A program made the position numbers and the translations under genes. 64,000 nt of DNA from Mytilus edulis (taxonomy: Eukaryota). The stretch covers positions 13,206,001 through 13,270,000 of the forward strand of contig NC_092349.1 of assembly GCF_963676685.1 (NCBI RefSeq), in the 5' to 3' direction. The notes under the pieces were generated by a model. That model saw nothing but the letters and a program-made list of their open reading frames with translations, searched no databases and was not told the DNA's origin. Shown piece after piece: positions 9,478 through 56,582 of the stretch. Numbering within the stretch: position 1 is the stretch's first letter; each line of letters starts with the position of its first letter.

Positions 9478-12400
9478 ATTTATTAGTGTAATCATATCAA
9501 TGATATTAGTTGTTCATGTCAACACATAAGTGCTGACTTCTGAGCTTGGGGTGACCTTGGTTAAAGAAAGATATCATACAGCAACGCCGTAATATATCAG
9601 AAAGACATGCATAAAACAAACTGTACCGAACAAGAAAAGACATGATAATGTATAATGCATAAAACAAACTGTACCGAACAAGAGAGACATATATGTACTG
9701 CCGAAACTATATATATTAGCAGAGCAATATTTGTCCTTTGATGCCTTGATTGTACAACAGTAAAATTTTAACTGTAAGAGTTCCTGATGACGCTAAATCC
9801 AGAAAAAATACTTCTGACGCAATTTATTCATAACGTATTATTTTCATTTATAACGTGCATGGGTAGATCTGTTAGACCAGAGAGATCGATTTGAAGGACA
9901 TGTCAAGCTTAATAAAGATTTAAAAAAAAAAGCAATATAACTTTTATCCCCTCTCATTTAAACAATATATCCTTCAAAGTAGAAATTGAGTCTTCCATAG
10001 TCTCGGACCACACATCTGTGTCAATAATATATCGGGTTATGTTTTGTGTACTATTGTGTGTCTGTTGGTCGTTTTCTTTTTTAGCCATAGCGTTGTCAGT
10101 TTATGTCCGACTTATGAGTTTGAATGTCCCTTTGGTATCTTTAGTCTCTCTTTTGCAACTACAATTAGCATGTTTTTTATCCAGAAATGCAAATAATCAA
10201 TACAAAAGGTAAAACAAATAAAAACAAATTAATCCTATCATTTTACTAATTTTAAGTAAAGAAAAAATCAATTGATTTAATCAATGAAAAAAAATAAGAT
10301 TAAAAGGGTGCTTCTAATTCAGGTGATATTTCAAAGTAAAATGTCAAAGTGAAACTGAAAACTCCAAAATACTATATAGAACACGAAAAAGTATCTTCTT
10401 TATTCTATTAAAGAAGTGTCTCTCCGGTCAGTCTTTTCCATATAAATTCTTACACAATATTTTCAATTGATGAACTTTGTCTTGTGTCCATTGCCGTAGC
10501 TTTTTATAATAAATTTAGTAATACCACATCAAAATTGACAGAGTAAAACATGTTTCCTTTTTTCATATTCCACTTTTATATCAAATATATTGCAACGTTT
10601 ATCTTGACTCTACTTTCACTTGACTTTTATCACACTTCATTTTAAATGTTGTAAACATTCAGTGTATGATAGTATTCGATTATTTCGGGTGAGTCGTCAA
10701 CTTTGTTTGTGTGTTATTCATACAACAAAATTAAATGTACTTAAAATATTAAAAACCGCTATATAAATCGTACATTTTTATAGAAAAAATTTTAAATCAC
10801 AAAATCTACCTACACTGGTGATTGAACTGATGCAATGAATCTCCAAAACATATTTTCTCAAGCTTATTATATTAAGGAGGGCAACTTTTGTTTGAATAAA
10901 TATTGTCGTTGCTTTTTATAATAGTGTTCTTTGTTCGAAAGCCTGCTTGTGTTTTTTGTCGAATGTTCATTATATTGTCTGTTTACATCACGATAAAATT
11001 TTAATATCCCCTTGGTACTTCCCACACGTTAAAACGGAAAAAGGAAAGTATATTTCAAAAAGACATCGTATTTGATTTGTTTTTCTACTTAGGACAATGA
11101 GAACAAATATTTTCATTTTATTTATTAGTTTAACCATATCAATGATATTAGTAGTTCATGTCAACACACTAGTGCTGACTTCTGAGCTTGGGGTGACCTT
11201 GGCTAAAGAAAGATATCATACAGCAACGCCGTAATAGATCAGAAAGACATGATAATGTATAATGTCTAAAACAAACTGTACCGAACAAGAGAGACATCTA
11301 TGTACTGCCGAAACTATATATATAAGCAGAGCAATATTTGTCCCTTGATGCCTTGATTGTACAACAGTAAAATTTTAACTGTAAGAGTTCCTGATGACGC
11401 TAAATTCAGAAAAAATACTTCTGACGCAATTTATTCATAACGTATTATTTTCATTTATAACGTGCATGGGTAGATCTGTTAGACCAAAGAGATCGATTTG
11501 AAGGACATGTCGAGCTTAATAAAGACTAAAAAAATGCAATATAACTTTTATCCCCTCTCATTTAAACAATATATCATTCAAAGTAGAAATTGAGTCTTCC
11601 ATAGTCTCGGACCACACATCTGTGTCAATAATATATCGGGTTATGTTTTGTGTACTATTGTTTGTCTGTTGGTCTTTTTCTTTTTTAGCCATATCGTTGT
11701 CAGTTTATGTCCGACTTATGAGTTTGAATGTCCCTTTGGTATCTTTCGTCTCTCTTTTGCAACTACAATTAGCATGTTTTTATCCAGAAATGTAAATAAT
11801 CAATACAAAAAGGTAAAACAAATAAAAACAAATTAATCCTATCATTTTCCTAATTTTAAGTAAAGACAAAATCAATTTATTTAAAGTGAAAAAAAGGTTA
11901 AAAAGGTGCTTCTAATCCGGGGGATATTTCAAAGTAAAATGTCAAAGTGAAACTGAAAACTCCAAAATACTATATAGTATCTTCTTTTTTCTATTAAAGA
12001 AGTGTCTCTCCGGTCAGTCTTTTCCATATAAATTCTTACACAATATTTTCAATTAATGAATTTTATCGTGTGTCCATTGCCGTAGCTTTTTATAAAAATT
12101 TTAGTAATACCACACCAACATTGACAGAGTAAAACATGTTTCCTTTTTTCATATTCCACTTTTATATCAAATATATTGCAACGTTTATCTTGACTCTACT
12201 TTCACTTGACTTTTATCACACTTCATTTTAAATGTTGTAAACATTCAGTGTATGATAGTATTCGATTATTTCGGGTGAGTCGTCAACTTTGTTTGTGTGT
12301 TATTCATACAACAAAATTAAATGTACTTAAAATATTAAAAACCGTCATATAAATCGTACATTTTTATAGAAAGAATTTAAATCACAAAATCTACCTACAC

Positions 12401-12705
12401 TGGTGATTGAACTGATGCAATGAATCTCCAAAACATATTTTCTCAAGCTTATTATATTAAGGAGGGTAACTTTTGTTTGAATAAATATTGTCGTTGCTTT
12501 TTATAATAGTGTTCTTTGTTCGAAAGCCTTCTTGTGTTTTTTTGTCGAATGTTCATTATATTGTCTGTTTACGCCAAGATAAAACTTTAATATCCCCTTG
12601 GTATTTCCCACACGTTAAAACGGAAAAAGGAAAGTATATTTCAAAGAGACATCGTATTTGATTTGTTTTTCTACTTAGTACAATTAGAACAAATATTTTC
12701 ATTTC
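9478..12705. repeat. recent tandem duplication, about 1.6-kb unit (9478-11118 and 11120-12705)
   Basis: Near-identical over the whole length; both copies start atttattagt..catatcaatgatattagt and end gaacaaatattttcattt. Each carries a degenerate hammerhead (9778-9820, 11385-11427). Confidence 0.95.
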
Positions 12706-15792: not shown

Positions 15793-16114
15793 AATTTGAG
15801 AATGAAATGGGGAATGTGTCAATGAACGAAAGAGACAACAACCCGTCCAAAGACCAGAAAACATCCGAAGGCCACCAATGAGTCTTCAACACAGCGAGAA
15901 AATCCCGCACCCGGCGGTGGGCTATAGCTGGCCCCTACACAAAAAAGTGTACTAGTTCAGTGAAAATTGACGTCAAACTAAAGTCCGAAACATAAAAATG
16001 AACTAAAATTAAAAAAACAAGCATACAAGACTAACAAAATCCAGAGAATCCTGACTTGGTACAGGCGAAAAAATGCGGCGGGATTAAACATGTTTTGTGA
16101 GATCTCAACCCTCC
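15793..16114 (-). repeat. dispersed repeat family copy carrying a twister-like fold at its 5' end (16041-16114)
   Basis: Homologous to 6845 and 29575. Minus strand reads GAGGG..tgagatctca..UAA-UCCC-GC..CCUG-U-ACC-AA-GU-CAGG. Confidence 0.7.
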
Positions 16115-16716
16115 ATTATGTAGCTACATTGTATTTCCTTTCTCCAGAGTTTACACTTTTCAATGATTTTCTTTTTTTTTGTCAGCATGTTCATTTCATT
16201 TCCCCCGTGATGTACCCAATTATCTGCAAGCCAAATTTTAGATCAATCTGACCATCTATTACTCATTTGACCATCTATTACTCATTTAATGTAGTATATA
16301 TGAGCTGTAAAAATGCAATATAAGATGAATTTGAATAAAGTTCATCCAGATTTATTTTTATTATATATGGGATACGCATATCCTTCTTCTATTTATTTTT
16401 TTAAGTGGCGTTTCATGAATAACATTCATCTTCATGGATATATGTGTATGGATTATGTATTCTTCCATTTGATAAATACGAATACATAATAATTTTAGAA
16501 CAAATATATGGGTCAACCAGGATACTTTTCCAGATCGGTAATACTGTTGTCGGTATTATTTAAATCACAAAGGTATCCTCGATTTTTTAATAATTTCGGA
16601 AACAAAGTGTCATTTAAATTTTTTTGTTTAATTCTTACATTTAATTAGATGAAATTAAAAGCAAACAAGAAAACACTGATTGAGTATTGTCAATTGATGC
16701 ATTACTCACGTTTATC

Positions 16717-17097
16717 TTAAATTATAATCCTGGTACCTTTGATAACTAGTTACACCACTTGGTCGATGCCACTGCTGGTGGATGTTTCGTCCCCGAGGGT
16801 ATTACCAGCCCAGTAGGCAGCACTTAGGTGTTGACATGAATATCAATTATATGGTCATTTTTATAAATTTCCTGTTTACAAAACTTTGAATTTAAAAAAA
16901 AACTAAGGATTTTCTTATCCAAGGAATCGATAACCTTAGCCGTATTTGGCACAACTTTTTTGGAATTTTGGGTCCTCAATGCTCTTCAACTTTGTACTTG
17001 TTTGGCTTTATAACTATTTTGATCTGAGCGTCACTGATGAGTCTTATGTAGACGAAACTTGCGTCGGGCGTATTAAATTATAATCCTGGTACCTTTG
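16717..17097 (+). mobile_element. retrozyme-like element: 356-bp monomer + 25-bp terminal redundancy, with type I hammerhead (17028-17071)
   Basis: ttaaattataatcctggtacctttg occurs at 16717 and 17073. Hammerhead reads gcgtca CTGATGA gtct-tatgt-agac GAA acttgcgt C gggcgt. No ORF. Confidence 0.8.
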
Positions 17098-17139
17098 GTC
17101 ATTTTACTTTGCAGATTTCTTCGAACCACAGTTAGTCTT

Positions 17140-20400: not shown

Positions 20401-20532
20401 CATTTTGCACTGTACATTAGTCAATGAAAGGCGAGGTGTCTATTATACTGAACGTAAACATAACATGACGTTTGAGTCTTCAATGCTCTTCAACTTAGTA
20501 CTTTATTTGGCCTTTTTAACTTTTTGATTTGA

Positions 20533-20576
20533 TCATCACTGATGAGTTTTTTGTAGACGAAAAGCGCGTCTGGCGT
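20533..20576 (+). ncRNA. type I hammerhead motif (core intact, stems partly mismatched)
   Basis: tcatca CTGATGA gttt-tttgt-agac GAA aagcgcgt C tggcgt. Confidence 0.7.
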
Positions 20577-21991
20577 ATACATTTTTATCCTGGTATCTAT
20601 GATGAGTTTATTAACCACGATGCAAAGTATTTGTACCTTCTATGGAATAATGACAAAGGTGAATACTGTTGAATATTATCAATTAGATTATTGATTTGTT
20701 TCTAAATCATACTCACTCCTTCACAAAAGTGTATGTGCTCTGTTATTGAAATGAGTTTTGATATATTTTTTTTTATTGAATTAAAAGGTGGAAAACGACA
20801 GAAGATTCCTGTAAAATAATTGAGCGTGTGCACAAATGTTTTACGTCACATGATAAGTGTACGGTAACAAAATTGTACCTGACAATTTCGACTTAAAATT
20901 AATTATTCCTCGTTATCACTAGTATTGACACAAAAACCACACGGACAAGGGTTCTATTCTGTTAAACTGACGTTACCTACTTCTGTTTTTGCAAGAGTGT
21001 ATCTTGATATTAAAGAGTCATACAGTACGTATTATTACTTCAAAAAAGCACTCATATATAATTTGTATTTTTTGTTGATGAAATAAATCGTGTACCTTCG
21101 TATTCCTTAAAATGACTTATATTTACTTTCTTTTCAAACGTTGCAAGGGTCTAGTTTTTGTTAATTCCTTTTTTTAGATTTGATGATGCACGACTTTGCA
21201 GACCAGTGCATCCAAAGTGTTAGTTTGTGATTCATATACAAACTTAGACCTAATTATATCTTGCCGCTACTTTTTCTTGACTTTGAGCACACTTTCTTTT
21301 TTAAATCTTGTGACAAGGATATGTTTTCTATTAATGCTAATTTAGATTTAATCGTGTGTGACTAACTATCTCGGTTTGAAATGTCAACCCTGTTGTTATG
21401 TCATTCATATAACAAAATAAAATATAATCAATTATCATTAAAGACCATCAAATTCATAACACGTTATATCGAAAGAAATTTAAATACCAAATTCTACTAA
21501 CAGTGTGAGTTATATCTAAAAAGAATATTTTCTCAATAGTTCTTATCTATAATAAGCAGTGCAAAGTTTGTTTGAATGAATGTTGTTGCTCATTTAAATT
21601 GTCCGTTATCTACGTACTGTTATTTACTTGTTTATCATTTGTGACGTCATATAGTTGTCTGATTTCGTCCAAATAAAGTTTGTTTTATATTCACCCTGTT
21701 TTCCCCGCGTTAAAGATGGAAATAAGAAGGCACATATTACATAGACATAGCACTATAACTATTTTTGTTATACTTAGAACAATTATTTCAAATTATTTTC
21801 CTTTGCAAGGTATATGAAATTTGTAAAAGCATAAGTCACAAAATATTAGACAACACCATGGCCGACAAAAACCCAATAAAGACAAATAGGTAAACAACAA
21901 TACACTGTACATACATGGAAAAATAAAGATTTAGTAAATGATATTCAAGACAAAATCAGATATGAATTATGGTACCTTGATTATTTCAACA

Positions 21992-24900
21992 AATAAAGGC
22001 AATAGTAGTATACCGCTGTTCAATAGTCATAAATCGATTTAACTGAAACAAATCCGGGTCACAAACCAAAACCGAGGGGAAACACGTCAACTATAAGAGG
22101 AAACAAAACGGAACAACATAAACACTGAACTGTTACAAAAACAAACGCCAACACACATAAACATGGATTATGTGATAACAGTTGCCATATTCCTGAATTG
22201 GTAAAGAACATTTTAAGAAAAACCTCCCGCTTGTAGCAATGTTAAAAATACCGCTAAAATGACAACATTACGTGACAGGAACAAAGTACAAAAAAATGCA
22301 AGAACATTCAGGACAGAAAATACATAAATAAATAATATAATAGTCCATGTCAACATGTAAACCACAGAATAACAACGAACACCAAAAACATCCGTATTGG
22401 GCAATATAAAGGCTGGAGTACCCCAGGGGTCGATCCTGGGTCCTCATTTATTTTTGATATTTATCAATGATATCATATCTGATAAACAGTCCACTATTAA
22501 GTTGTTTGCTGATGATACAAGTTTATATTTGATAGTAAATAACCCCCGAGAATCAGTAAACAACTTGAATAGTGATCTCGCAAAAATCCATAGATGGTCT
22601 TCAGATTGGCTAGTGACCTTTAACCCTTTTAAAACCGAGAGCATGACTTTTTCACGGAAACTTCACAAACCTGATCATCCAAAACTTAACATGGACAACG
22701 TAACTGTAACTGAGGTATCAACCCATAAACACCTTGGATTACATATTTCAAACGATGGCACTTGGCATAAACATATTGATGAAATAAACTAAAAGGCATA
22801 CAAACGACTGAATGTTCTACGAAAATTTAGATTCATCCTTGACAGACGAACACTCGAGACAATATACCTAACACATATAAGACCATTTTTAGAATATGCT
22901 GATGTCATCTGGGACAACAACACACATCTTTTGTTTGATAAGATTGAAAAAGTACAAACAGAGGCTGCCAGGATCGTAACTGGGGGTACTAGGTTGGTGT
23001 CCCTAGAGAGATTATATCTCGAAACGGATTGGGAAAAGCTTAAAGATCGAAGGGAGGCCCACAGATTAATGTATTTTTATAAGATGAAAAATAGTATTAC
23101 TCCGGAATATTTATCAACCTTAGTTCCAAAATCCCATGCAACCATACATAATCATAATACGAGAAACTCGTCCCTAATCCCCCTGTTCGAACTAGAACAG
23201 CCCTGTATTCGAATTATTATTAACCGGCAACTGTACGTTCATGGAATCTCCTCCCTGAGAGTGATAAGACCAGTACTTCGGTGGGGGCATTCAGGAATTG
23301 TGCCCAGTCTCGAGTGACAAAACCTCCAAATTATTTTTACATTGGTAAGCGATTAGGTCAAATTTATCACTCAAGACTTCGAATGCAATGCAGTTCTCTA
23401 ATTCAACATATTTTTGTAAAAAAATATAGTGGCCTCACTACTTTGTTTATGTGGTGCTATAGAAACAACAGCGCATTACTTGTTGCACTGCCCCCGATTT
23501 CACATCATGCGTGAACAGCATATTTATAATATCAATATCATACATTTCTTGTCGGAAGAAAATTTGCTACATGGTTCAACGGATTTCAGCTACGAACAAA
23601 ACATTGAAATATTCTTTGCAGTTCAAACGGTCATACTCAGTAGCAAAAGATTTGTCATATGATAACAAACATCTTGTTCAACAAGAAATACTTATATCTT
23701 AAATAATTGTGTCCGTTCAGAAACATACACTTTATTATTGTATTTCCGATGTATATTTTGTTTTCTCTTTTGTGTTCACAACCTTATTGTATGTTTTGTT
23801 TATTTTCCATCTAGTGTAACATTGTTATTTTTTTAACATTATACTCCTTGAGTATTACAATATGAAATGTTCTTATTTGAATCAGGAAACGGATTAATAT
23901 AAGCTTACAGCTTGTTTCTGGATCCTATTAATTATTCACTTGAATTGATATGTAAATGACAATTTGTGTACATTACTTAACCTGAATTTAATTAATAAAA
24001 TATGTTTACACTAACACCAAAATTAATTTACGACAGAACACAAATACAGCACAATAAAATAATGAAATGTGCGTCACACGATTGTAGCAACGCCACAAAA
24101 AGTGACGTCATAGGTAATTTTTTGAAAATACCATATGAAATTGGGATTAAGTTTGTAATGGTGTTATTTGATATACTTTCTAACCATTACAAGCATATTA
24201 ATATAGAATTGTGTAAGTAATTGTGTAAATATTTGTATTTTATAACCATGGGTTATCTTCTAAATCAAACTGAAAACAACCCGAATGAATCCTGTGCATA
24301 TAGTTGCTTTTAATCTAAAATCATATCAATGAACTAAAAAGAATTAAAACAACAAACGATAAGACATAAAACAACATTCCACCAGAATTACAAATGTAAC
24401 ATCATAACTAAATAAATGAATGTTGGATGTACAAATACCGAGACACGTCTAATATTAATGCAAATTTATACTCAGCAAAACAGTCATATTCGGGAATAGG
24501 TCACGTTCGATACTTAGAAGACCAGACGACGTAGATGGTAAACCACAATATAAGACGTATTGAAAATGTCGTTAGCTAGTTTAAACACAGTCACACCGTA
24601 AATATCAACCATTTCGTGATAGTGTCCATAAATACGGAGTGTAATTTTTAATCTTTCCTCCTCATAACTCTGTTGGAGCAGTTTCTGCGTAAGGAGCACA
24701 CTCCTGTAAATGAATGCGTATAGTGTAAACATGCACGCGCATAGCGTATCAACTGAGATATGTAAACACCATACGATGGAGCAGAGGGTATGTTACTGCT
24801 GAGAAATGGAAAAATGATAATTGTGAAGTTGAAATCGTCCTTTTGTCATAAATTTTAGTGTGAAGTAGTTCATATGTGTAAATATTGAGTAAAAGATCAA

Positions 24901-27426: not shown

Positions 27427-27868
27427 AAGAGAGGCGAAAGTTACCAAAGGGACATTCAAACTCATAAGTAAAGAATAAACTGACAACGCCATGGCTAAAA
27501 AAGAAGAGACCAACAGACAAACAACAGTACACATGACACAACATAGAAAACTAAAGAATAAACAACACGAACCCAACCAGAAACTGGGGGTGATATGAGA
27601 TGCACCGGAGGGGTAAGCAGATGCTGTTCTACATGTATCACCCGTCGTGTTGCTCATGTTAGTACAAACCCGGTAATAAGTATAAATCGGTAGGCATATT
27701 CGGGGACAGAATTGTAGTTACGACAATTGGAACATATCCACTGTTAACAGTGAAACGGATATTTCATAACGGTAACCAACTCGTGATGGCGTCCGTAAAA
27801 TTTACGAAGGGATGATTTTAACTTCACCACTTGGAACTCTTGGTTTAATAGCTGCCTTGTCAGCAGTT
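27427..27868 (-). mobile_element. Penelope-like element 3' end, second subfamily
   Basis: LLTRQLLNQEFQVVKLKSSLRKFYGRHHELV followed by a structured UTR. Related fragments at 37208-37420, 10020-10155, 11632-11760 and 14810-15000. Confidence 0.75.
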
Positions 27869-28234
27869 TATGTTTTCTATTTATTGTGAAAATAGACCTC
27901 ACAGCTATTTTCATTGTTATACATTTTAAAATTTTGTAAACTAACAAACATTTAAGATATAATATTTGAATTAATCTGTGATGGTTCTTTTTTAATTAGA
28001 ATTTGTCTTTAATTGCATACATATCAGGTCGGTAATACTGATTTTATTTTATTTACAGACACGAAAAGAACTTCAAACAAAAGAGGCAAAAGATGATTTC
28101 AGTCAACTTATAGACGCGTATTATTGTATTTGCAGATACTTATTTTATAAAGAATGTCGACTGAAATAACATTTCCTGTTAACATTTTTTTATAGTAAAT
28201 AAACTCATCATAGATATCAGGATTATAATTTTGT

Positions 28235-28278
28235 ACGCAAGACGCGCGTTTCGTCTACAAAAGACTCATCATTGATGC
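28235..28278 (-). ncRNA. type I hammerhead motif (C3->A) in a retrozyme-like copy (28195-28440, resuming 29545-29730)
   Basis: Minus strand reads gcatca ATGATGA gtct-tttgt-agac GAA acgcgcgt C ttgcgt. Confidence 0.7.
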
Positions 28279-28440
28279 TCGAATAGAATGAGTTAAAAAG
28301 GCCAAATAAAGTATAGAGTTGAAGAGCAATGCTCACCCGAAATTCCTAAACGTTTTGCCAAATACAGATAAGGTAATCTATTCCCGGGGTAAAAATTCGT
28401 TAGTATTTCGAAAAATTCAAAGTTTTGTAAACAGTTATTA

Positions 28441-29550
28441 ATGCTATTAATAAGTATTAAAATGTGCATTGTTATTAAATGCAATATCAGTATTTAGTTC
28501 AAATATAATCTTAAATAGATCCTAATTCTATCTTATTCATTCAAATGTGACGCCATTTTTCATTTTTTAATGATCTGTTTTACAAATTCAAATGACGTCA
28601 TTTTTTGGTCTTTTTTACAATTTCAAATATGACGTCACTTGGCGTTGAGGTTTAAACTTATTCGGATGTGTCTACATTTTGTGTTGCAAATGCCTGGTTA
28701 TGTAATGTATTTCAGTTGTTTCCTGTAATTAGTTAATACTTCAGTTTCATCATGTACATCTTTTGTATAGTAATTTTATAAATTTACTGTTTGCAAAAGT
28801 ATAAATTATTCTAATTAATAGGGATGCTCTGGTAACTTAACAGAAAAGACTGGCCGTTTTTGGCACAACTTTTTTTTTATCTTTTGGTCCTCGATGCTGT
28901 TCGACTTCGTTCTTGTTTCGGCTTTCAAAGTTTTGTATCTGGGCGTCACTATTAGATCGTGTGTGGACAAAATACACTTCTGGCGTATTAAAATTTTGAA
29001 CTTGTTGCCTTTTGTTAGCTGTTGTTCGTGTGTTTTTTTGTTAATTGTGTTCTCCAATTTATTTTTATTGTAGTCTTGTGGTGTTGAGTTGTCATTTTAA
29101 TGTTATATTTCACATGGCTATAAAAGGGGAGGTTTGGCATGCCACAAAACCAGGTTCAACACACCATTTTTTCCTTTAAAAATGTCTTGTACCAAGTCAG
29201 GAATATGGCCATTGTTATATTATAGTTCGTTTCTGTGTGTGTTACAATTTATCGTTGCGTCGTTTGTTTTCTCTTATTTTTTAGTGTAAATTGACATTGC
29301 GATAAGGCGTGTCACGGTACTTGTCTATCTCAAATTCATGTATTTGGTTTTGATGTTATATTTATTATTCTCGTGGGATTTTGTCTGATGCTTGGTCCGT
29401 TTCTGTGTGTGTTACACTGTAGTGTTGTGTCGTTGTTCTCCTCTTATATTTAATGCGTTTCCCTCAGTTTTAGTTTGTTACCCCGATTTAGTTTTTTGTC
29501 CATGGATTTATGAATTTGAACAGCGGTATACAACTGTTGCCTTTATTTAT
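28441..29550 (+). mobile_element. 5'-truncated Penelope-like 3' UTR copy nested in a retrozyme-like repeat
   Basis: Near-identical to 33191-34250. Contains dead hammerhead 28943-28986 and twister-like motif 29114-29212. Confidence 0.85.
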
Positions 29551-32500: not shown

Positions 32501-32709
32501 CAACCAATTTACAACGTGCTACACGTTCTCTGTTTTTTTTTTCAATTCAAGGTCTAATAAACTTTGGCAACAAACTCAAAAGTGAATAAGGTTGCAATCA
32601 ACAATTAAATATTGAAATCTCATTTGTCGATAATCAGTCATAGAATCAGAGATGCATGCATTGGTTTAATATTTCAATAATATAAATACAAAATATTCTT
32701 TCCATATGA

Positions 32710-34250
32710 CTTTAATATACAGGAGTGTGCTCCTTACGCAGAAACTGCTCCAACAAAGTTATGAGGAGGACAGATTAAAATTGACACTCCGTAAATTTTA
32801 TGGACACCATCACGAATTGGTGGATCCATACGATGTGTCTTTGACCAAACTAGCTAAGGACATTTTTACCACATGGTAGATTGTGGTTTGTCATTATGTC
32901 GTCTAATCTTTTAATTATTACTATAAGACGTGTTACGGTACTTGTCTATCCCAAATTCATGTATTTAGTTTAAATGTTTAATGTTATATTTGTAATTCTC
33001 ATCGGATTTTGTCAAATGTGTTGACGTCTTTTCTAATATATTTATGTGTTATGGTAAAGAAAATTAATCACCGCATTCATTTATTAGATTTGATTTTGTT
33101 CAACGTAATCAGTACGATATTTTACGTTTGAAGTTAGATTCAAAACAAACCGGACATAGCTTTATAATATAGTTAATTGCTACCTTAGTTTGCTATTAAT
33201 AAGTATTAAAATGTGCATTGTTATTAAATGTAATATCAGTATTTAGTTCAAATATAATCTTAAATCAATCCTAATTCTATCTTATTCATTCAAATGTGAC
33301 GTCATTTTTTTGTCATTTTTTACAATTTTAAATATGACGTCACTTGGCGATGAGCTTTAAACTTATTCGGATGTGTCTACATTTTTTGTTGCAAATGTCT
33401 GGTTATGTAAGATTTCAGTTGTTCACTGTAATTAGTTGATACTTCAGTTTTATCATGTACATCTTTTGTATAATACTTTTATAAATTTACTGTTTGCAAA
33501 AGTATAAATTATTCTAAATAATAGAGATGTTCTGGTTACTAACAGAAAACCCAGGCCGTTTTTGGCACAACTTTTTTGATCTTTTGGTCCTCGATGCTGT
33601 TCGACTTTGTGCTTGTTTCGGCTTTCAAACTTTTGTATCTGGGCGTCACTAGTAGATCTTGTGTGGACAAAATGCACTTCTGGCGTATTAAAATTTTTAA
33701 CTTGTTGCCTTTTGTTGGCTGTTGTTCGTATGTTTCTTTGTCAATTGTGTTCTCCAATTTATTTATACTGTAGTCCTGTGGTGTTGAGTTGTCATTTTAA
33801 TGTTATATTTCACATGGCTATAAAAGAGGGAGGTTTGGCATGCCACAAAACCAGGTTAAACCCACCATTTTTTCCTTTAAAAATGTCCTGTACCAAGTCA
33901 GGAATATGGCTATTGTTATATTATAGTTCGTTTCTGTGTGTGTTACATTTTAACGTTGCGTCATTTGTTTTCTCTTATTTTTCAGTGTAAATTCACATTG
34001 CGATAAGACGTGTGACGGTACTTGTCTAACCCAAATTCATGTATTTGGTTTTGATGTTATATTTGTTATTCTCGTGGGATTTTGTCTGATGTTTGGTCCG
34101 TTTCTGTGTGTGTTGCATTGTAGTGTTGTGTCGTTGTTCTCCTCTTATATTCAATGCGTTTCCCTCAGTTTTTGTTTGTTATCCCGATTTTGTTTTTTGT
34201 CCATGGTTTTATGAGTTTGAACAGCGGTATACTACTGTTGCCTTTATTTA
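32710..34250 (+). mobile_element. Penelope-like (Naiad-type) element: last ~53 codons of RT ORF (stop 32879) + ~1.37-kb 3' UTR
   Basis: YRSVLLTQKLLQQSYEEDRLKLTLRKFYGHHHELVDPYDVSLTKLAKDIFTTW*. No C-terminal GIY-YIG after the RT thumb. Terminal hairpin aacagcggtatactactgtt. Confidence 0.85.
33814..33913 (+). ncRNA. twister-ribozyme-like motif, type-P5 permutation (candidate)
   Basis: P5 atggctata/tatggctat; P2' G(A)GG + GA + GGT; AA-CCC-AC; P3 cattttt/aaaaatg; P4 cctg/cagg with loop T-ACC-AA-GT. Pseudoknot complements GGT:ACC and AC:GT are present. Confidence 0.6.
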
Positions 34251-36989: not shown

Positions 36990-37535
36990 AACTCGGGAAC
37001 TGATCTTGGGATCTATCGGTCCCCAACGGTATCATCAGCTCAGTAGTCAGTACTTCGGTACTGACATGATTTATAACAAACCTTTCCAAAATTGCCCGTT
37101 TATAAATTTTTGAATTAAAAAGAAACTTAGATTTCAACTCCCTGGAGCAAAATTGACCTAAGATGCATTTTGTATGTCCTTTTTGGTTACATGTATATAG
37201 CTCTTCAAGGAGAGACGAAAGATACCAAAGGGACATTCAAACTCATAAGTCGATAATAAACTGACATCGCTATGACTAAATTAGACAAAGATCAACAGAC
37301 AAGCAGACAACCAATAGTACACAAAAAACGATTGAAAACTAAAGACTGAGCAACACGAATCCCACCAAAAACTTGGGGTGATCTCATGTGCTCCGGAAGG
37401 GTAAGTAGATTCTGCTCCACAACTGTATCGGTTCGTATACATCCTTGACTTTCAAAAATTGAGCGTCCCAGTTGAAGGTAAATCTAGGAAAGCGCTTCGG
37501 ACGCATGACATTTAGAACGTGTTGTTTTCAATTTT
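36990..37535 (+). mobile_element. second retrozyme-like family copy (decayed hammerhead 37463-37504), interrupted by a Penelope-like UTR fragment 37208-37420
   Basis: gcgtcc cagttga aggtaaatcta gga aagcgctt c ggacgc. Related cores at 9778, 11385 and 12977. Confidence 0.65.
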
Positions 37536-40158: not shown

Positions 40159-42086
40159 GTAAATGCTATGTTTTCTATACCATAAAAAGAACTTTGAGCA
40201 TTTTATTTTTATTTTGCACAATATCCTTTAATGTACGCTGTATTACAATAACTCATAACAGTCGGGATTCTACTTCGTCAAAATTATCTCCCCATTACGC
40301 CAGTTCATTTTCACAATCGTAGAAAAGGAGGCCATTGTAGGGATGACGCGCTGCCAATTTTGCCCTTGGAAACCGATAAATTTATCCACATTGCACCATT
40401 ACGATCCTCATATGTCAGTTGTAATTTAAAAGACAAATGTATCAACTAGCTAATGAGCATCAGTTAATGATCTTGTCTGCATTGATTCAACTTAAACTAT
40501 TGTCTGATCGGTTGTCAGGTGGAATTTTCGAAAATTCATAAACATTTAAAAAAATTTCTACTTAAATATTTGACTAGATTTTTTTTGTGGTTGAAGACAA
40601 TAAACCCTAGTTATCACACACAAAAAATCATAATTTTTCGAGGAAATGCATTTTCATCATCCAACTTGAAAGACTGTCGTCAAGTACTTTCAGTAAAAAA
40701 AAAGCTATTCGAACGCACCTACTCTGTTTTTGTGATTCATTAGATAGGTATTTCACTTGACCCATATATTTCATCTTTCAGTACTGTGATTTTTTTATGT
40801 TATAAAGTCAACCTGTAGCTTTGATATATAAAAATGATAGAATCTGAAGTGAGACGATGTATGAAATATTCTTGCTTTGTACGATATCAAGACAAAATAT
40901 TCAACTCAAACACGCCCTTACATAAAAAGGTGCACTCGATTTCCTCTTTTCGATACAATTGTTACCCATTTTTTGGAATTTTTTCTTGAGTCACATAATG
41001 GAAGGGCAGACACGGAAATTGCTAAACTAATGGATTAATATGTTTTCCGTTCGTGGTAATTTTTTGAAAAAAATCGGAGGTTATGCATTTTCTACATCCA
41101 ACTTGAAATATACCCATGTCGTCGACTTGATATCTAATTGTTCTGCTTAGCTATGTACTAGATAAATTAAAAACTTATGCAAATGGTGTTTTTAGAATAA
41201 AACACTTCGTAATTGAGAAGAAAATTGTAAATTTGTTTGTTTCTATTAACTTTTAAATTTTTTGTCACTATAGTAAACATTACAGTAAGCATTTATCGCC
41301 TTCTCTAACAAAGAGCTTCGAATCTTTTGTTCTATTTTAACCGGGTTTCCGACTGATAACTGGACGTTTTAACAAAGTTTCAGTTTCATTTTTTTTTAAA
41401 TGAAGGTCTTGACAATTTTCTAAGTCTATCAAATTACGTATTTTACTTTAAGTTTAGCTTTATGTGTACATTTTATTTGTATATATATATATTTTTTATA
41501 AAGTTTCCTTGTTCTTTTAAAATCATATTTGCACCAAAAAAAATATTGAGCTAGGTATCACGGACTTGCTAAACATCAAAATATTGGTAATGCCAGAGAA
41601 CACTTTGAATTTGACAAAATACTAAGGGTTTTCTTCCCCTGGGATAGATTACCTTAGCTATATTTAACTAAACCTTTCAAAATTTTGGGTCCTCATTTTC
41701 GTACTTTATTTGGCGTTTTAAATTTTTTTGATCCGAGCGTCACTTTTGTATACGAAGCGCGCGTCATTGGTACAAAATATTATTCGTGGCATCTGTGATG
41801 AGTATATGCTTAAGCACTGACTACTCAGCTTATGATTCCCAAGGTGACTAACAGTCCACCAGAAGTGGTAGTAAATGAAAATAACACATTCTAAATCCCA
41901 AGCGCAAATAACATAAAAGGGCCTAAGCAGAAGCGCCTACACTGAATTTACGTGTTAGAGATGCTCATTTTATTTCAATGATAATCAAATGTAACAATAC
42001 TATGAAAAATACTTATATAAATTCAGTTTGATCCACAAATTAAAAATATCTGTGGTCTTATACGGAACATTTACCTCATTATGCAG

Positions 42087-42663: not shown

Positions 42664-44936
42664 CTTTGGAAACCAAACACTGAAGACGACCTTGATAGTA
42701 TTGTTATGCGATAAGTCCAACATGTAAGATAAAAATGTACAATGTTGTGTGATACATGTGTTAATGTGGGTCTGTGTTGAGATCATAATTCAGGCATAAA
42801 CAAGCAAACTCCTCATTGAATGAAAATGACATAAACCCTACACCATATGAGATCAGGTAAATTGGCAGCTTAAGCATCTCCTGATTCCATCGCCATACGA
42901 TTTCTAAACAATATAAAATACAAAGTGTCAAATCTATGAAATGACTTAACTATATACAAATACATAAATGCATTAACTAGCTTTAAAACCAGGTTTAATC
43001 CACCATTTTCTACATAAGAAATTGTCTGTACCAAGTCAATTACATGACAGTAGTTTTCCATTCGTTTGATGTGTTTGAGCTTTTAATTTTGCCATTTGAT
43101 AAGGGTCTTTCCGTTAAGAATTTTCCTTGGAGCTCGGTATTTTTGTTATTTTACTTTTCAATGGGTGATAGAACATTCTTAACATTTGAATTATTTTTTA
43201 TTTGACATTTGTTCTGGTAAACCATATTGAATCTAGGGAGTGTGAATCATAAATGATGGTCTTTGAGCTGATTATTAAGCTCAAACAAAAAACGTACTTT
43301 TTTATATGCTGTAGATACCATTCTCCCTCTTTGGCGCAAAATTACGTCGCAAAGTTTTCTGAATGCATCATTGGCGTTCAGCTTTTACCGTCTTTACTGT
43401 CATAAATTAGTAAACGAATCATTCTTCATTTGCCTCGAATTTTAAAGAGCATGTTCGTGTTTCTTTACAATGCTTTTAAATTTACGCCACCAATTTGATA
43501 ACTTCGGAGAATTTTCCATATGAACCAAGGACCGGATTAACATACAGAACATGTCCTACTTTTAAAAAATATTGTCATACTAAATCAAACATGCTAAAGG
43601 GGACCTATGTAATAAACACTTTAAAATGTTTGTGTGGTCGAAGCGCCTGTTCTGGTTGTACCTACATCGGGAACATTTGAACGTTGAGATGCGTAAATAC
43701 GCTGCAACGTTAGGTGCTATATTATCCTAAAAAACCTAAACGGAAGAAGCAAATTCATGTAATATCAACTTTGCATATTACAACATAAGGTATCTACCAC
43801 CAACACCTTTTGTTTTTATCCCAACATTCTCCTTTATAATTTCGATCGGTAGAATTACAACAGATTTACAACACATAAAATAACTTCCAACATATTTTTT
43901 TTACATTCAATTTATTATTGGATTGGTTGGGGCCGGAAGTTGTCATAATTACAGCTAAATGACATATTAAATGGACATTTTCAGTTTTTTCCCTCGGCAT
44001 AGATTTCCATCTTAAACCCTTCTATTTCATAGTTTTTAAGTAAGTTTTTGCTCAACTTTAAATTCCATATCCAATTAAAAATGGAGTAATATAGGGGGAA
44101 TAGACATTACAGTTCACAAGCATCGGCTTTCCTGTCTGTACCAGCCATTGTATACCAATTTTACTTTCACCCATGACATAATTTTCCTTTTCAACTCAAC
44201 AGTCATAGCAAATCACCGAAATCAGAAATATTAACATTATGTGCTATGTAAAAATGAACTTTTTCGAACTTTAAAAGAAGTTACTTGCTTGAATTCTTTG
44301 ATATGTATAATGTAAAATCTTCAAAACTCTTAAACACTCTGTTGATTGGAGGTCTTTAATCTATTTAGATTTTTCCTGCTTATATGACGATATAATTTAT
44401 TACACTAAAGCTTAAATTTACGATAACCCCTAATAATTTTACTTCATCATTGCACATATCATGTGTGTTTTGTAATGGTTTTTTTTTAAATAGAAATATG
44501 GCTGTCGGTTAGGTATGGCAGTACTTCGTTTTAGCCTAGTTGTTTATTAAAGAATATACAATTTTCAGAAACAAAAGTTTCCCTATTTCTTAAATATTTA
44601 CGGGAAATATTGGAATGGACATGCTATAAGGCTTACTATACCACATACAGGTTTATTACAGGTTTTTCTTTTTCTTTTCAGATTCCATTGTTTATAACAC
44701 CATTACAAGACATTCCCTGAAAATCCAAGCTGTAATATATAACTTGTCTTAATTCTCCCTGGATAACTTCTGTAGTTGAATCTGTTACTTTGGTAGCATC
44801 TATATGTCAAAGAAGATTTTGTATTATCGTTAATGTTATATTATGAGCGGTCTGCTTTGTTCAATCATCCATTCGTGCAATTGCAGTTACTTGATTCGCA
44901 CCTCCTATTTTTTAAACATGTTAAACGAGTACGTCT

Positions 44937-45376: not shown

Positions 45377-47425
45377 AAGTGATGATTCTTAAATTGAGCC
45401 TGACAATTTTGATTAAAACAACGACTATATCCAAGTTCTACTCGGTTATATTGCGACGTCAGCAGTTTGATAACCATTTGTAGGTAAATAATCTAGTAAT
45501 TTATTTTGTCTTATTATTAGAAAAATAATACATTCCTGTATCTTAGACACTATGCTGATTGATTATTTGGCTACATGGAAAATTATAGATTAAATGTAAA
45601 AAAAATATATATATCATTTATATACTTTTTAAGAGACTTAACTTTTACCTATATACGTATCTGTTATTATATATCTGCAAAGAATTCTGTTCGCTTTCTA
45701 CTGTTGATTTTGTTTGTTCTCACAAAGATACAAGTTTAAGTTGCAATTGGTGGAACTTGGTTCTATTTGAACTTTTCTCAAAATATTACTTTTAAAAGTC
45801 AGGAAAAGGACAGTTGTTTTCCTTTCGTTTGATGTGTTTGAGCTTTTGATTTTGCCATTTGATAAAGGACTTTCCGTTTTGAATTTGGAGTTCGATATTT
45901 TGTTATTCTACTTTTTGTGCCATTCTATTTAAAAAAAAACTGAAATCCAAATGTCTTTTTGACTTAAATTGCTTTCGAATATTATTTGCCATGGATATTA
46001 AAAACTTAACATGTTTTGAAGCAAATTAAAATGAATTCATTTCCATGTGAAAGACAGAATTTGTGTAAGATTTTGATATCCAAACTATGCACATTTTAGG
46101 AAATAAGAAAACGTTGATAAATACTACGAACTGTCATTGCATTTGAAATCATATTTTTGTTATCTATATAAGGTATTATATTTGTTAGCTATCTCTACAA
46201 GTAATTAATTTCACAGAATCTAAACTACGAAAGCAAACATTCATGACAATTTTGACAACGTTCAATGTGAGCATTCACTTCTAAGAAATTCCCGTTTACA
46301 TTTGCTATTCCTACAAATCTATTTTCATTTCAATTGCGTGTTTTTGGTAACACTAATGTTGGACATAAGTTCTGAAACGAAATATCCATAGTTTAAAACA
46401 CAAAAGATGTAAAAGAATCACATTTTAAGTAATCATATTTTTTCTGATTTGCTCGGTTAAGAATCGTGTCTGTGTTTTTTTTTTTATTGTTTGAAATCAC
46501 AACAAATATGCATACTTTTTCTGTATGTGTTAAAATGAAATTTGTAATCAATTAGTGAATACAATGCCATTCCTAGAAGTAGTTTTTATATACTTTGTTC
46601 TTTTTATGTTCTTCTTAAATAAAAATTTGCAGCAGTCGTGTTTTATTTTGTTTTTATTTAACACATTAGAAGTAAGCTTTACTTCGTCTTTTGTCGTAGA
46701 CAATAATATAATACACTCCCCATTTACACTAATACATTGTGATGGTGATTTCTAGTGGTTGGGTGATAAAGTCCCATATTGAATCAATCGACTATTTTGA
46801 TTCTCATTGAATCATGAATCTTTGTCAATCGTCATTTATCGAGTGAATTCGATACGTTCCTTCTATCAACGGAATCTGTTAAAAGACGAATAGAAACTCA
46901 GGGTGTATAATATAACTTTTGTGTCATGTTTTCCCCCTACAGACCTGCATAATAAATAGGTTCACAGAATATTTGTTCATTTATAAGAACATGTAGAAAA
47001 ATGAAGATTAGTAAACAGTTGGTCATATCTAAAAGACAGTATCATGTCACAGTAACACGAGTTTATTTAAGATAAAATTAAAGTAACGTGTTTATATTAT
47101 AAAATGGAGTCATGTAAGGCACCCAATCAGTCGTAAAGCATTTATACAAATTTTCGGCTATGTGATAATTATCCTAACCATCAGTCTGTTACTGTTTAGG
47201 AAGATTAAGATTACAGATTTAGAACCGAAAGATGGAAAAACGTCAACAAAATTAGTTATCATCTCTGATTACCATGTTTTTAAATCGATTGGAAGACCAG
47301 AAATAGCCCTATAAATGACCATCCATAAATTCATCTAGTAAATTGCAGTTCATAGAACAAATATTTCAAAAAAACATTCCCGAAGGATATTTGAACCTAT
47401 ACAGTAAAAGTGATTCAATACCTAG

Positions 47426-49653
47426 ATAAAGGCAACAGTAGTATACCGCTGTTCAAACTCATAAATCCATGGACAAAAAACAAAATCGGGGTAACAAACT
47501 AAAACTGAGGGAAACACATAAATATAAGAGGAGAACAACGACACAACACTACAATGTAACTAACACACACAGAAACGGACCAAGTATCAGACAAAATCCC
47601 ACGAAAATAACAAATATAACATCAAAACCAAATACAAGAATTTAGGATAGACATGTACCGTGACACGTCTTATCGCAATGCCAATTTACACTCAAAAATA
47701 AGAGAAAACAAACGACGCAACGTTAAATTGTAACACACACAGAAACGAACTATAATATAACAATGGCAATATTCCTGACTTGGTACAGGACATTTTTAAA
47801 GGAAAAAATGGTGGGTTGAACCTGGTTTTGTGGCATGCCAAACCTCACACTTTAATGGCAATGTTAAATATAACATTGAAATGACAACATAATATTACAG
47901 GACCACAATACAAATAAATAGGAGAACGTATTAGACAAAAAAACACATGATTAATGAATAACACAATTTTCAGGTTTAAAATTCTATACGCCAAAAACGC
48001 GCCTTGTCCAAACAAGACTCACCAGTGACGCCCAGATATAAAAGATCGAAAGCGAAAAAAGTACAAACTTGTACAGCACTGAAGATCAAAAGTTGAAAAA
48101 GGTTGAATACATTTGACAAAATCCGATAAGAATTACAAATATAACATTAAACATTTAAACTAAATACATGAATTTGGGATAGACAAGTACCGTAACACGT
48201 CTTATAGTAATGTGAATTCACACTCAGTAAAACAGTCACAATCGGGAATAAGTCACGTTTGGTAATTAAAAGATTAGACGACATAATGACAAACCACAAT
48301 CTACCATGTGGTAAAAATGTCCTTATCTAGTTTGGTTAAAGACACATCGTATGGATCCACCAATTCGTGATGGTGTCAATTTTAATCTGTCCTCCTCAAA
48401 ACTTTGTTGGAGAAGTTTCTGCGTAAGGAGCACACTCCTGTATATGAAGTCCGTATAGTGTGAACAAGCACGTGAATAACGTATCAATTGTGATATGTAA
48501 ACACCATACGAAGGGGCAGATGGTATGTTACTGCTGAGAAATGGGAAATTGATAATTGGGAAGTTGAAATCGTCCCGTTTATCATAGATTTTCGTGTGAA
48601 GTCGTCCATCTACGTCAATATTGAGGAAAAGATCAAGGTATGAAGCAGTCCTTCTAGTATCAGTAGTATCCTTAATTTCAAGTTCACTGGGATATATGAG
48701 ATGTAAGTATTGGCTGAAGTATGGGTTATTCAATGATAGAACATCATCAATATATCGGAAAGTAAAATTAAAGAATTTCGCAAGGTGCTTTTTCTTTTTG
48801 TCTTTTAGAAGGTTCTGAATGAATTCTGCTTCATACAAGTACAAAAACAAATCAGCCAGCAGGGTGCACAATTAGTACCCATTGGAATACCGATTGTCTG
48901 TTGAAATATAAATCCTCCAAACTCAACAAATATACTGTCGATCAAAAAGTCCAGCATTTTGATAATATCATCTTCAGTATATTTTCTGGAAGATTCAGTG
49001 TGATTCTTCACAAAATATGAATTATTGTAACCCAAAACAAGAAATTGTATCTACGATTCCCATTTTTAAAGAAAAAGCTCTGTTTTATGAGATGGTGAAG
49101 TCGATCTTTCAACTGAGCATGGGGAATAGTAGTATATAGCGTAGAAAAATCAAAAGTTTTTATGTTGCTGCAAAATTGCAAAGATTGTGATCGAAGGTTA
49201 AGCAGTGAGATCTTTGGAATTTTTGAGAATCCACATCTGGTTAACACCACTGGTAGAGTATATCTCCTCACAATATTTTTGAAGCCCATCTTTAACTGTA
49301 GAAAGAATAGTAGTCAGTACTTTAGAAAGATGTTTAGTCGGACATTTTGAAGAACCAGCTATGTATCGTTCTTTATATGGAGTTTTGTGTAATTTAGGTA
49401 TCCAGTATAATGAGGGCAAGTTTTCTTCGTTTTCTTTGATGTTGATACCAAAAGAAAGAAGGACAGATTTATGATTTTTTAAATTTCGTCTTTGGTAAAT
49501 GATGTTAAAGAATATGTAGGATTACCAGTAGTTTTATCAATTCCAAGCTCTGTAGTGAGACATTGCAAATAATGTTTTTTTACATATGAAGACAATATTA
49601 TTGGAGGCTTTATCTGCTGGAACAACGACATATTTGTCATGCAAAGAGGATAG
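47426..49653 (-). mobile_element. Penelope-like (Naiad-type) retroelement, 5'-truncated, frameshifted RT (49653-48301) + 3' UTR
   Basis: VVPADKASNN, LYWIPKLHK, RYIAGS, FDFSTLYTTIPH, GIPMGTNC, FRYIDD and YGVYISQLIRY motifs across several frames. UTR holds dead hammerhead 47988-48031 and twister-like motif 47762-47861. Confidence 0.92.
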
Positions 49654-50900: not shown

Positions 50901-51468
50901 AATAAAGGCAACAGTAGTATACCGCTGTTCAAACTCATAAATCTATGGACAAAAAACAAAATCGGGGTAACAAACTAAAACTGAGGGAAACGCATAAATA
51001 TAAGAGGAGAACAACGACACAACACTACAATGTAACTAACACACACAGAAACAGACCAAGCATCAGACAAAATCCCACGAGAATAACAAATATAACATCA
51101 AAACCAAATACATGAATTTGGGATAGACAAGCACCGTGACACGTCTTATCGCAATGTCAATTTACACTCAAATATAAGAGAAAACAAACGACGCAACGTT
51201 AAATTGTAACACAAACTGGTGGGTTGAACCTGGTTTTGTGGCATGCCAAACCTCGCACTTTAATGGAAATGTTAAATATAACATAGAAATGACAACATAA
51301 TATTACAGGACTACAATACAATAAATAGGAAAACGTATTAGACAAAGAAACACATGATTAATGAATAACAAAAAGCATCAGGTTTAAAATTTAATACGCC
51401 AAAAACGCGCCATTCCACACAAGACTCACCCATGACGCCCAGATATAAAAGATCGAAAGCGAAAGAGT
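50901..51468 (-). mobile_element. Penelope-like 3' UTR copy with an internal deletion
   Basis: Near-identical to 47426-48060; lacks the P3/P4 half of the twister-like motif. Confidence 0.85.
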
Positions 51469-51919: not shown

Positions 51920-53010
51920 GTGTGCATATGAAGGCAAACTAATTCAGAACCTCCTCAAAGACATAAACAAAAACATCTTATCATGGTAATAAATTTCACT
52001 TTCAGATACGTGGATGACATGTCACTCCATATTCCACATATCAGTTAGTGTACATATTATATATACCAGTTAACGTGAGATTAAGGATACTACTGTAACT
52101 AAAAGAGAGCCGTGGTGTAGTGGTTAGTGCATCGATCTACTAACACGAAGGTTCCTGGTTCGATTCCCGTCTGGGATGAAAATTTCAGGAACTGAATTTT
52201 CGGCTCTCCCTTGACACCATTTACGAGTATGGTCTCGAGGAAACGATGATAGTCCGTCGGAAGGGGACGATAAATGGCTGACCCGTGTTAAGAGAGAGCC
52301 ATATCTCTTGCACGTTAAAGACACCCTTGTAGATTTCGAAAAAGAGCAGGCTAATGCCGCTACAAGGCAGCACTCGCACCCGCAAAGTGGAAAGGAATTA
52401 ATATAAGTTGCAAAACTTGTTTCCCAATCCACTATAATTAAATATGTTTAAACTAAAAGGTCTGCTTCATATGTCCCTCTTGCCCTCGATATTGACAAAT
52501 ATAACTGACTTTAATACATATCTGTATTTACACGTGACGCTCTTTAAAGTCCACACTGTATGGAACAGAACGACTTAAATCGAAACAACATAAGTTTTAC
52601 GGTCACCACTACAAACTGGTTGACCAATACGATATGCATGTTTCTTAACGCAAAAGCGTCATGTTTCTGCTGTCTTAAAGCTAAAGATACAAAAAAGTAG
52701 TTTCATCTGTAATGTAAATGATTGTTTCCATAAAGCGCGGAGGTTTAGCTAGCCACACAACCAGGTTCAACCCACCATTTTTTCTTAAAATGTCCTGTAC
52801 CAAGTCAGGAATATGGCAGTTGTTATCTAATAGTTCGTTTCTATGAATGTTGCTTTGTTGTTTGTTTTTTGTTGCACTTGTGTGTTCTATTATTTCGTTG
52901 TTTTCCTCTTATAGTAGATGTGTCTCCCTAGTTTTTAGCTTGTAACCCGTATTTGTTTTCTCTCAATCGATTTATGACTTTTGAACAGCGGTATACTACT
53001 GTTGTCTTTC
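51920..53010 (+). mobile_element. degenerate Penelope-like RT fragment (host of the SINE) followed by a UTR fragment with twister-like motif 52725-52820
   Basis: Remnants of IQNLLKD, NFTFRYVDD and EIKDTT..K|SASY, split exactly by the SINE. Confidence 0.7.
52106..52450 (+). mobile_element. tRNA-derived SINE, central region resembling the Deu/Nin conserved domain
   Basis: Box A tggtgtagtgg (52113) and box B ggttcgattcc (52157). Body tcggaaggggacgataaa...cgttaaagacaccc...ttcgaaaaagagcagg resembles the Deu/Nin domain as recalled. TSD aactaaaag at 52097-52105 and 52451-52459. Confidence 0.88.
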
Positions 53011-54505: not shown

Positions 54506-54661
54506 TGTATACTGCAATATTGTAAAATAGCAGTATACAATCTGCAGATTTTAAGTCTAGTTCTTATCTTAAAATCTGCAAATCTTTATTCAAATACACA
54601 GTCTTACACAATTATAGCCAATTCGGCTATTAATGTGTAAGACTGTGTATTTGAATAAAGA
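54506..54661. other. three abutting hairpins (10-, 13- and 28-bp perfect stems)
   Basis: tgtatactgc/gcagtataca; tgcagattttaag/cttaaaatctgca; tctttattcaaatacacagtcttacaca/tgtgtaagactgtgtatttgaataaaga. Confidence 0.9.
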
Positions 54662-55911: not shown

Positions 55912-56582
55912 TCAATTTTCATTGTGTCCTGTATCTTCCTCGTCGTCTTCAACGTCCTCAATTTCAACAATGCCAAGACATTCTCCAAACCATCTAGCAA
56001 AGGTTATCACCTGTTCTTGCAAAAGATCAAAACACATAGCTAAGAGTGTTAGTCCAAATAGTAGATAAATTGCACAGATAAACTGTTTTGGTTGACTTTG
56101 CCACGAGTCTAAACTATGTCCTGGTACAACATCACCGAATCCTATCGTTGACAAGGTGATGAAACAAAAGTAAGCAGACGTTAGTATGTCCCAACTGGTT
56201 TCCCATAAATGAAAAAGCAATGTGCCAATCAGTGTATACGTTATAACAAGTAAACTGCAAACGATTATGGGCACGTGCTGTGGAGGCGGCAGAGTACGAG
56301 ACGGTATATAAACTATTAAATTCTTTTCTTCGGATATAGTTCCGTTTTCACCTTTGACCTTTTTATGCTGGATAGTTGTGTGGGGAAGTGGTAAAGCATT
56401 CCCAATACCAAAATCTCGTTTATTTCTAACAACTGGTATTCTATTATAGAAGATCTGAAATCCTTTCCCAAGAAGGGATCCAATATTTGCAAGACACAAC
56501 AATGTAAGTGGTATTCCAAAGAATGCATATATCATTGTGACAATTCGTCCCCATGCAGTTTTAGGTGTAATGTGTCCATAAC
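55912..56582 (-). CDS. two-pore-domain potassium channel (K2P, TWiK family), coding exon 2
   Basis: ctgttgaag| acceptor; (G)YGHITPKTAWGRIVTMIYAFFGIPL; pore 2 YFCFITLSTIGFGDVVPG; TM4; stop TGA. Joins exon 1 in frame (1335 bp, 444 aa). Confidence 0.95.

Follow-up and report, generated by a model that had tools for sequence, protein, structure and literature searches.

Which of two ribozyme motifs came first in the untranslated region (UTR) of a mussel retrotransposon, and how did they come to lie side by side? The question is raised by a 64,000-nucleotide stretch of Mytilus edulis DNA (NC_092349.1, positions 13,206,001 to 13,270,000 of the forward strand; hereafter the window), where a Penelope-like UTR carries a piece of a retrozyme with a broken hammerhead and, directly downstream, a twister-like motif. 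The first-pass annotation of the window read this arrangement as a hand-over from hammerhead to twister, with the hammerhead inactivated before the subfamilies amplified, and as a physical link through which the reverse transcriptase (RT) element could mobilise retrozymes.

The host proved to be a Penelope-like element (PLE), as proposed, and could be narrowed to a Naiad. The window copy (32697-34250, plus strand) is a retrotransposon 3' end, 5'-truncated so that its RT is reduced to the final 60 codons and the stop (32697-32879), whose translation matches the C terminus of the 1007-amino-acid protein of the relative L042. The original 3' UTR follows (32880-33435); it is homologous in RT-bearing loci and ends in a left TTAG (33432-33435), the junction being placed from the group alignment. 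Beyond the retrozyme piece and the twister-like motif, the rest of the 3' UTR and the element's 3' end occupy 33914-34250, and this end is common to 28 of the 30 closest copies. Full-length relatives (L041, L042 and L045) contain an intact 1007-amino-acid open frame flanked by two UTR copies, and the tandem, pLTR-type arrangement with UTR on both sides of the open reading frame (ORF) was seen in L041, L042, L044, L045 and L050. In L042, a GIY-YIG domain (PF01541 at 138-226, E 1.4e-4, 22.5 bits against a cut-off of 22.6) lies N-terminal to the RT (PF00078 at 711-856, E 0.013, below cut-off) within one ORF, an order that is clear even though the Pfam scores are weak; on the family's RT fragments in the window, Pfam gave no RT match. 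A CxC linker motif and DKA (for DKG) were read in the translation, and both are Naiad features according to PMC8557442. The twister-like motif stands 3' of the RT in 18 of 20 RT-bearing loci. Lack of a canonical hammerhead, a further Naiad trait, holds for the young subfamilies (0/50 intact) but not for older filled copies (10/51 intact). An RT protein tree, which comprised unnamed relatives only and was reduced from 104 to 80 rows by removing the L161 and L121 RT rows, rows of fewer than 180 residues and duplicates, nests the host family with weak support among Naiads carrying another motif and not with the twister clade. Separately, a segment of ~110 nt occurs twice in the young subfamilies, right after the RT stop (32917-33022) and past the twister (33984-34092); the downstream copy is absent from older subfamilies, so the UTR grew by internal duplication.

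The retrozyme segment in the UTR is real and longer than first described. Window positions 33477-33715 align with the free retrozyme at 16859-17099 at 72.8% over 243 columns, with a local score of 160, where the best of 1000 dinucleotide shuffles reached 34, and the full homology extends over ~33436-33720 (plus strand), corresponding to about nt 65-350 of the monomer at 16750-17105. This captured, 5'-truncated retrozyme is missing from empty-site copies of the family, described below. A one-off insertion could be ruled out: all 40 of the best matches scored, among 4503 candidate genome matches, cover the segment at 95-100%, and it is present in 19 of 20 RT-bearing loci, the twentieth ending before the segment's place. 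The segment is thus a secondary insertion since fixed in the Naiad family. Further copies lie in the window: a second subfamily-A copy (28442-29549, plus strand, 89.9% to 33191-34250), a subfamily-B copy with an RT fragment, a differently mutated hammerhead and a twister-like motif (47423-49653, minus strand), and an old short 3' copy, of the empty type by motif match and with its twister partly deleted (21990-22345, minus strand). Two loci, L048 (oriented 5034-5520) and L050, share an arrangement in which most of the captured segment is duplicated in tandem.

Within the segment, the type I hammerhead remnant (33643-33686, plus strand; former cut site after 33680) reads CTAGTAG..CAAAA at 33649-33672, compared to CTGATGA..CGAAA at 17034-17057 in the free retrozyme. 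It departs from the type I core CUGANGA...GAAA...UH at five positions, G5, A6, G8, A9 and G12, and is predicted to be inactive. As the annotation had noted, a near-identical dead core is found at 28949-28972, the minus strand has differently mutated cores at 48002-48025 and 51410-51432, and the twister-like motif begins ~125-130 nt past 33695 (GA at 33830; P4/L4 hairpin at 33887-33902).

To place the loss of the hammerhead in the history of the family, we compared cores among its subfamilies. Intact cores were found in 20/36 free retrozymes, 2/14 earliest filled and 8/37 older filled copies, and in none of the young copies searched for them (0/28 in subfamily A, 0/13 in C and 0/9 in B, or 0/50 together; likewise 0/30 among the closest copies). 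Since the core is broken, and the break fixed, in all three young subfamilies, inactivation preceded their amplification, just as had been supposed. The older relatives carry hammerhead and twister together, with cores graded from canonical through single to double changes, and in 5/16 older loci an intact hammerhead accompanies the twister. G8 and G12 are changed in 28/28 subfamily-A copies, and the 13 subfamily-C copies have changed further. Because G12A slows the hammerhead 10^5- to 10^6-fold (PMC2553840), the A and C hammerheads are predicted to be dead. In the nine subfamily-B copies A6 and A14 are changed. A14 is important for hammerhead activity in general, and on this ground the B hammerhead is also expected to be dead, a weaker prediction than for A and C. 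Relative to the earliest-filled majority, the hammerhead core showed no significant excess of change over the remainder of the insert (p 0.04-0.49; the value of 0.04 counts position 17, at which the majority carries the derived base), and neutral decay is therefore compatible with the data.

The twister-like motif (33816-33913, plus strand) has a P5-permuted layout, recognised by a structural parse and by covariation across Naiad families, with no Rfam match. Its parts comprise GA (33830-33831), T1 (33832-33834, pairing with loop 4), P4/L4 (33887-33902) and a predicted cut at 33858^33859. P4 with an 8-nt L4 and the pseudoknots T1 and T2 follow in P5 order with compensatory changes across families: T1 reads GGT/ACC, GGG/CCC or AGG/CCT, and T2 reads AC/GT, GC/GT or CC/GG. 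For T1, T2, P2, P3, P4 and P5 such changes were seen in at least five families in the genome and in Naiads from other samples. All six group majorities agree in the catalytic G(A), the cut-site A (N^AA), T1, T2 and P4. Where a P1 hairpin would be expected there are two palindromes, which vary in sequence while keeping their symmetry. P2 covaries between families (G-C, A-T, T-A), but within the host family four of the six groups show a mismatch at the pair beside the catalytic G. In L107-type copies T1 contains a T-T mismatch. When scored against 510 shuffles, 14/17 representatives exceeded the best shuffle, a result that is partly circular, as the representatives had been picked with a profile of such motifs. 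The Rfam twister-P5 model (RF02684) matched neither the motif nor, with the best 79 of 31236 candidates scored, any place in the genome. Across the window, the motif and seven Naiad loci, Rfam likewise recognised no ribozyme family; this blank is weak, because the free canonical hammerhead was missed too. A strict twister descriptor matched just 1/80 metagenome loci, and the profile found more; in a random 400 kb, profile matches numbered 37 for the twister-like motif and 23 for the hammerhead. In a profile search of 104 RT ends, the twister-like motif was found behind RTs of 36-64% identity, the intervening sequence lacking a hammerhead, and hammerhead-free Naiads carry it down to RT identities of about 36-49%. 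In the structural parse the motif behaves like a twister, and we treat it as a candidate member of that class. That it would act as a dimer through its palindromes is a reasonable guess, because PLE hammerheads act as dimers through palindromes (PMC4209133). Because the RT of the host family groups, with weak support, with Naiads that have another motif, the family may have gained its twister in an earlier exchange of UTRs.

Related motifs were seen elsewhere. Twister-like motifs of other Naiad families lie in the window at 16039-16132 (minus strand), 42974-43047, 52724-52820, and 19528 and 25437 (minus strand). In many Naiad families a second conserved structured motif, 30-200 nt past the RT stop, replaces the twister, and it too has a loop-less palindrome. 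It occurs in the window (27561-27652, minus strand), at L072:3280-3385 and in many Naiads in L067-L146, L180, L209, L210 and L215, with compensatory changes in 18/24 predicted pairs and no Rfam match, and it may be another ribozyme.

We also inspected RNA reads for signs of cleavage. One 2026 RNA run (~6% sampled, 1865 matching reads) and two contig sets covered the UTR on both strands, and 79% of the raw-read matches continue into unlike sequence. The sole read-end pile-up (7 molecules) lies at neither the hammerhead nor the twister predicted site, in a library type that need not show cleavage. Double cutting and religation should leave genomic copies in which the cut sites of hammerhead and twister are joined; a search for such a junction gave 0 matches, an absence that proves little. 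The missing pile-up at the twister site, together with the lack of an Rfam match, the abnormal P1 and the weak P2, would suit a reading in which the motif is a conserved structure, such as a dimerisation or RT-binding signal, that no longer cuts, leaving young elements without an active ribozyme. We regard this as unlikely, given that the catalytic G and the cut-site A are retained, that compensatory changes preserve both pseudoknots, and that in tested twisters P1 is dispensable in type P5 (PMC5408937) and imperfections in P1, P2 and P4 are tolerated (PMC5408937, PMC11662667). Such a structure would, moreover, leave the order of events unchanged.

That order can be read from the insertion site. 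A genome search with an old copy revealed the same family in two states, empty and filled. In at least 6/30 loci the upstream UTR runs through one TTAG into the downstream UTR and twister without interruption, while others hold the retrozyme piece between two TTAG. The insert, ~285 nt, lacks the retrozyme's first ~65 nt and ends at the usual retrozyme 3' end: in 7/8 free copies (from the window and a random sample) homology ends just past the same 3' motif or enters the next head, and the eighth ends equally at that motif, with one change. Allowing up to one mismatch, the genome holds 79 matches to the empty junction and 198 to the filled right junction, compared to 0 for reversed-pattern controls. 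The family's RT end lies upstream of four empty copies at 80-82% nucleotide identity (L265, L266, L276 and L288), and the insert of the earliest filled group differs from the free retrozyme at 17/284 sites. No right junction is visible in the window copy, because a later small deletion removed it from the older-filled groups and the young ones.

To assess the relative age of the two states, we compared the sequence downstream of the site, using 3' ends of which 44/173 were unclassified; for the empty copies, L247 was kept and 14 near-identical, segmentally duplicated loci (L248-L262) were omitted. Of 335 downstream sites, 2 separate the empty from the earliest-filled majority; another 15 set these two groups apart from all later ones, and 17 more, nested within, split off B, A and C. 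Mean divergence was 9.4% for empty (n=18), 6.6% for earliest filled (n=15) and 7.0% for older filled copies (n=34), falling to 3.0% in B (n=9), 2.3% in A (n=28) and 0.5% in C (n=13), values biased by the choice of copies as best or exact matches and under which earliest and older filled copies are not separable by age. The ratios of exact to one-mismatch junctions (18:61 for empty and 73:125 for filled) likewise correspond to 11.5% versus 6.4% divergence (p=0.024). A T2-family outgroup agrees with the empty copies at 11 sites and with the young ones at 8, counts that leave the root undecided, and an RT nucleotide tree, which does not set the root, places the empty copies with older filled copies on very short branches. 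As an observation apart, one empty-site copy is repeated at least 17 times, 50-150 kb apart and 85-99% identical (L247-L263, G000:C3:31.74-33.00 Mb), forming a large segmental tandem array.

Together, these results do not support the proposed hand-over, and its direction is likely wrong: the empty copies are the most diverged, the twister core is unchanged, and the motif covaries in distant Naiads without a hammerhead, so the twister was probably there first, and the hammerhead was captured later and then decayed. For the hammerhead to have come first, the empty copies would have to be later deletions at TTAG microhomology. Copies with both an intact hammerhead and a twister do exist, the nesting of the RT among twister-free Naiads suggests that the twister may have been acquired, and TTAG at both ends could have served such a deletion on an undecided root; but the same family exists with a twister and an empty site in its most diverged copies, the deletion would need to stop precisely at the 3' terminus of the retrozyme, and the 104 RT C-termini include no clean hammerhead-only Naiad, whereas the twister-like motif is widespread in hammerhead-free Naiads. 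We hold this scenario to be very unlikely; on balance, insertion into a twister-bearing Naiad would be much more economical than a deletion ending by chance at the retrozyme's boundary. In our judgement it is highly probable that a Naiad 3' UTR took a retrozyme piece into an active, twister-bearing element, and that the hammerhead then decayed in successive masters while the twister core was kept. The empty and filled sites, the TTAG flanks, the insert's end at the retrozyme 3' end, the series of core changes, the covarying fold and a hairpin shared with Naiads, considered next, were observed directly.

We then turned to the relation of the free retrozymes to Naiads. Tandem units of ~350-390 nt with a type I hammerhead are found as the 16750/17141 pair and as the L061 trimer (period ~353 nt). 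By alignment, the monomer with the canonical core (16750-17105, plus strand) opens with ~65 nt that form a Naiad-type 5' hairpin. The first ~62 nt match the Naiad stretch from pLTR to ATG with a score of 40, compared to a shuffled maximum of 28 (2000 shuffles), nine heads give one hairpin fold with 9/23 pairs compensated, and the hairpin opens ORFs in three other Naiad families. The head of the free retrozyme L055 matches the L072 family at 53/62 positions versus 45/62 for the host family, and the genome contains at least 40 copies of the L072 family, at 98-100%, with a frame open to the locus end in 12/12 of those checked. The link between retrozymes and Naiads therefore exists, in the form of the shared hairpin, but the UTR segment, as a secondary insertion, cannot show which RT moves retrozymes. 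The hairpin would be the better pointer to the mobilising RT, and it points to another Naiad family, of the young L072/L297 type, as the closest. The converse descent, in which a deletion in the host UTR brought a Naiad 5' head up against the hammerhead segment and so created the retrozyme, has the slimmest chance of the readings weighed here: UTR homology does start at retrozyme nt ~65, where the Naiad-type head ends, and Xenopus retrozymes derive from PLE terminal repeats (10.64898/2026.07.22.740005), but the empty site would call for another event at the identical pair of breakpoints, the head is nearer another family than the host, and other retrozyme families share both the head and the following bases. 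Retrozymes may nevertheless have originated from some other, unsampled Naiad.

Hammerheads of a second, possibly third retrozyme family, with differing 3' ends, lie at 20490-20601, 28209-28322 (minus strand), 41697-41796 and 37456-37527. The window also contains another non-LTR RT fragment (22373-23317, plus strand; PF00078, E 2.5e-10), a tandem duplication of ~1640 bp at 93% identity (9478-12704), long near-perfect inverted repeats (54583-54661 and 7257-7407) seen only as sub-threshold miRNA-like matches, and exons (55912-56604 and 58363-59115, minus strand) that by eye resemble a two-pore potassium channel gene, presumably what they belong to.

How capture and decay might have proceeded can be outlined for our preferred reading, the capture of a retrozyme piece by a twister-bearing Naiad. 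A Naiad RT would have made the insertion, ~100 nt upstream of the twister in an active element. The twister, perhaps as a palindrome-paired dimer, would process tandem, pLTR-flanked transcripts into single units, and the hammerhead, ~180 nt upstream of it, would be a second cutter, useless or harmful, and so lost stepwise. This loss, by relaxed constraint or by selection, would have run as decay in successive master copies. Retrozymes would be non-autonomous Naiad partners, with the young L072/L297-type family as the closest match. More speculatively, and with clear reservation, Naiads might use swappable 3' self-cutting modules, including a twister that fires only on palindrome pairing of two pLTR copies, with retrozymes as passengers recognised by the shared 5' hairpin; once a passenger sat inside its helper, selection could have repeatedly silenced the hammerhead because a second cut breaks the transposition unit.

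Several elements of this picture are already published: PLE hammerheads, mussel retrozymes, the kinship of PLEs and retrozymes in Xenopus, and twisters in a schistosome retrotransposon. We found no literature on twisters in Naiads or on PLE capture of a retrozyme, in a search that left most subscription papers outside and on which the supplements of PMC8557442 and PMC7229834 may bear. The host family agrees with the Naiads of Craig et al. (2021, PMC8557442) in its N-terminal GIY-YIG, CxC, DKA, C-terminal RT and tandem pLTRs, in its abundant 3' fragments and in young copies without a canonical hammerhead; its unit of 4.54 kb slightly exceeds the 3.4-4.4 kb given there. That paper reports no canonical hammerhead, its main text does not contain the word twister, and its supplement lists 'HHR_core' cases, whereas the host family has a twister-like motif in the UTR and, in older subfamilies, a canonical-core hammerhead from the captured retrozyme. 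The twister-like motif is therefore a candidate resident ribozyme for Naiads. It shares P2, P4, L4, T1, T2, the catalytic G and the cut-site A in P5 order with type-P5 twisters (PMC5408937, PMC11662667) but has two palindromes for P1, no RF02684 match, a PLE host and cutting that is only predicted. Association of a twister with a retrotransposon recalls the variants in Schistosoma Perere-3 (PMC8501958), and a pLTR ribozyme with a palindrome suggesting dimer action recalls the dimeric minimal PLE hammerheads (Cervera and de la Peña 2014, PMC4209133), here with a different ribozyme class in the resident position. Whether hammerheads merely parasitise PLEs is a question raised in PMC8557442; the dated natural series found here (empty, captured intact, stepwise mutated and dead) offers material for probing the role of ribozymes in PLEs.

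The free retrozymes have the tandem ~350-390-bp units and type I hammerhead of the Mytilus galloprovincialis non-LTR retrozymes (Cervera and de la Peña 2020, PMC7229834), a likeness drawn from the description and not from the cloned sequences. PLEs were proposed there as the mobilising partner from co-occurrence; here, by contrast, an autonomous element has a truncated unit fixed within it, and the retrozyme head matches Naiad 5' ends, providing a candidate helper RT and a candidate recognition signal for mussel-type retrozymes. Finally, Li, Clavereau and Pollet (2026, bioRxiv 10.64898/2026.07.22.740005) describe homology of this kind between retrozymes and PLE terminal regions in Xenopus and read it as descent from PLE to retrozyme, whereas the homology analysed here is read as capture from retrozyme to PLE; retrozyme-PLE homology alone does not give the direction of descent.
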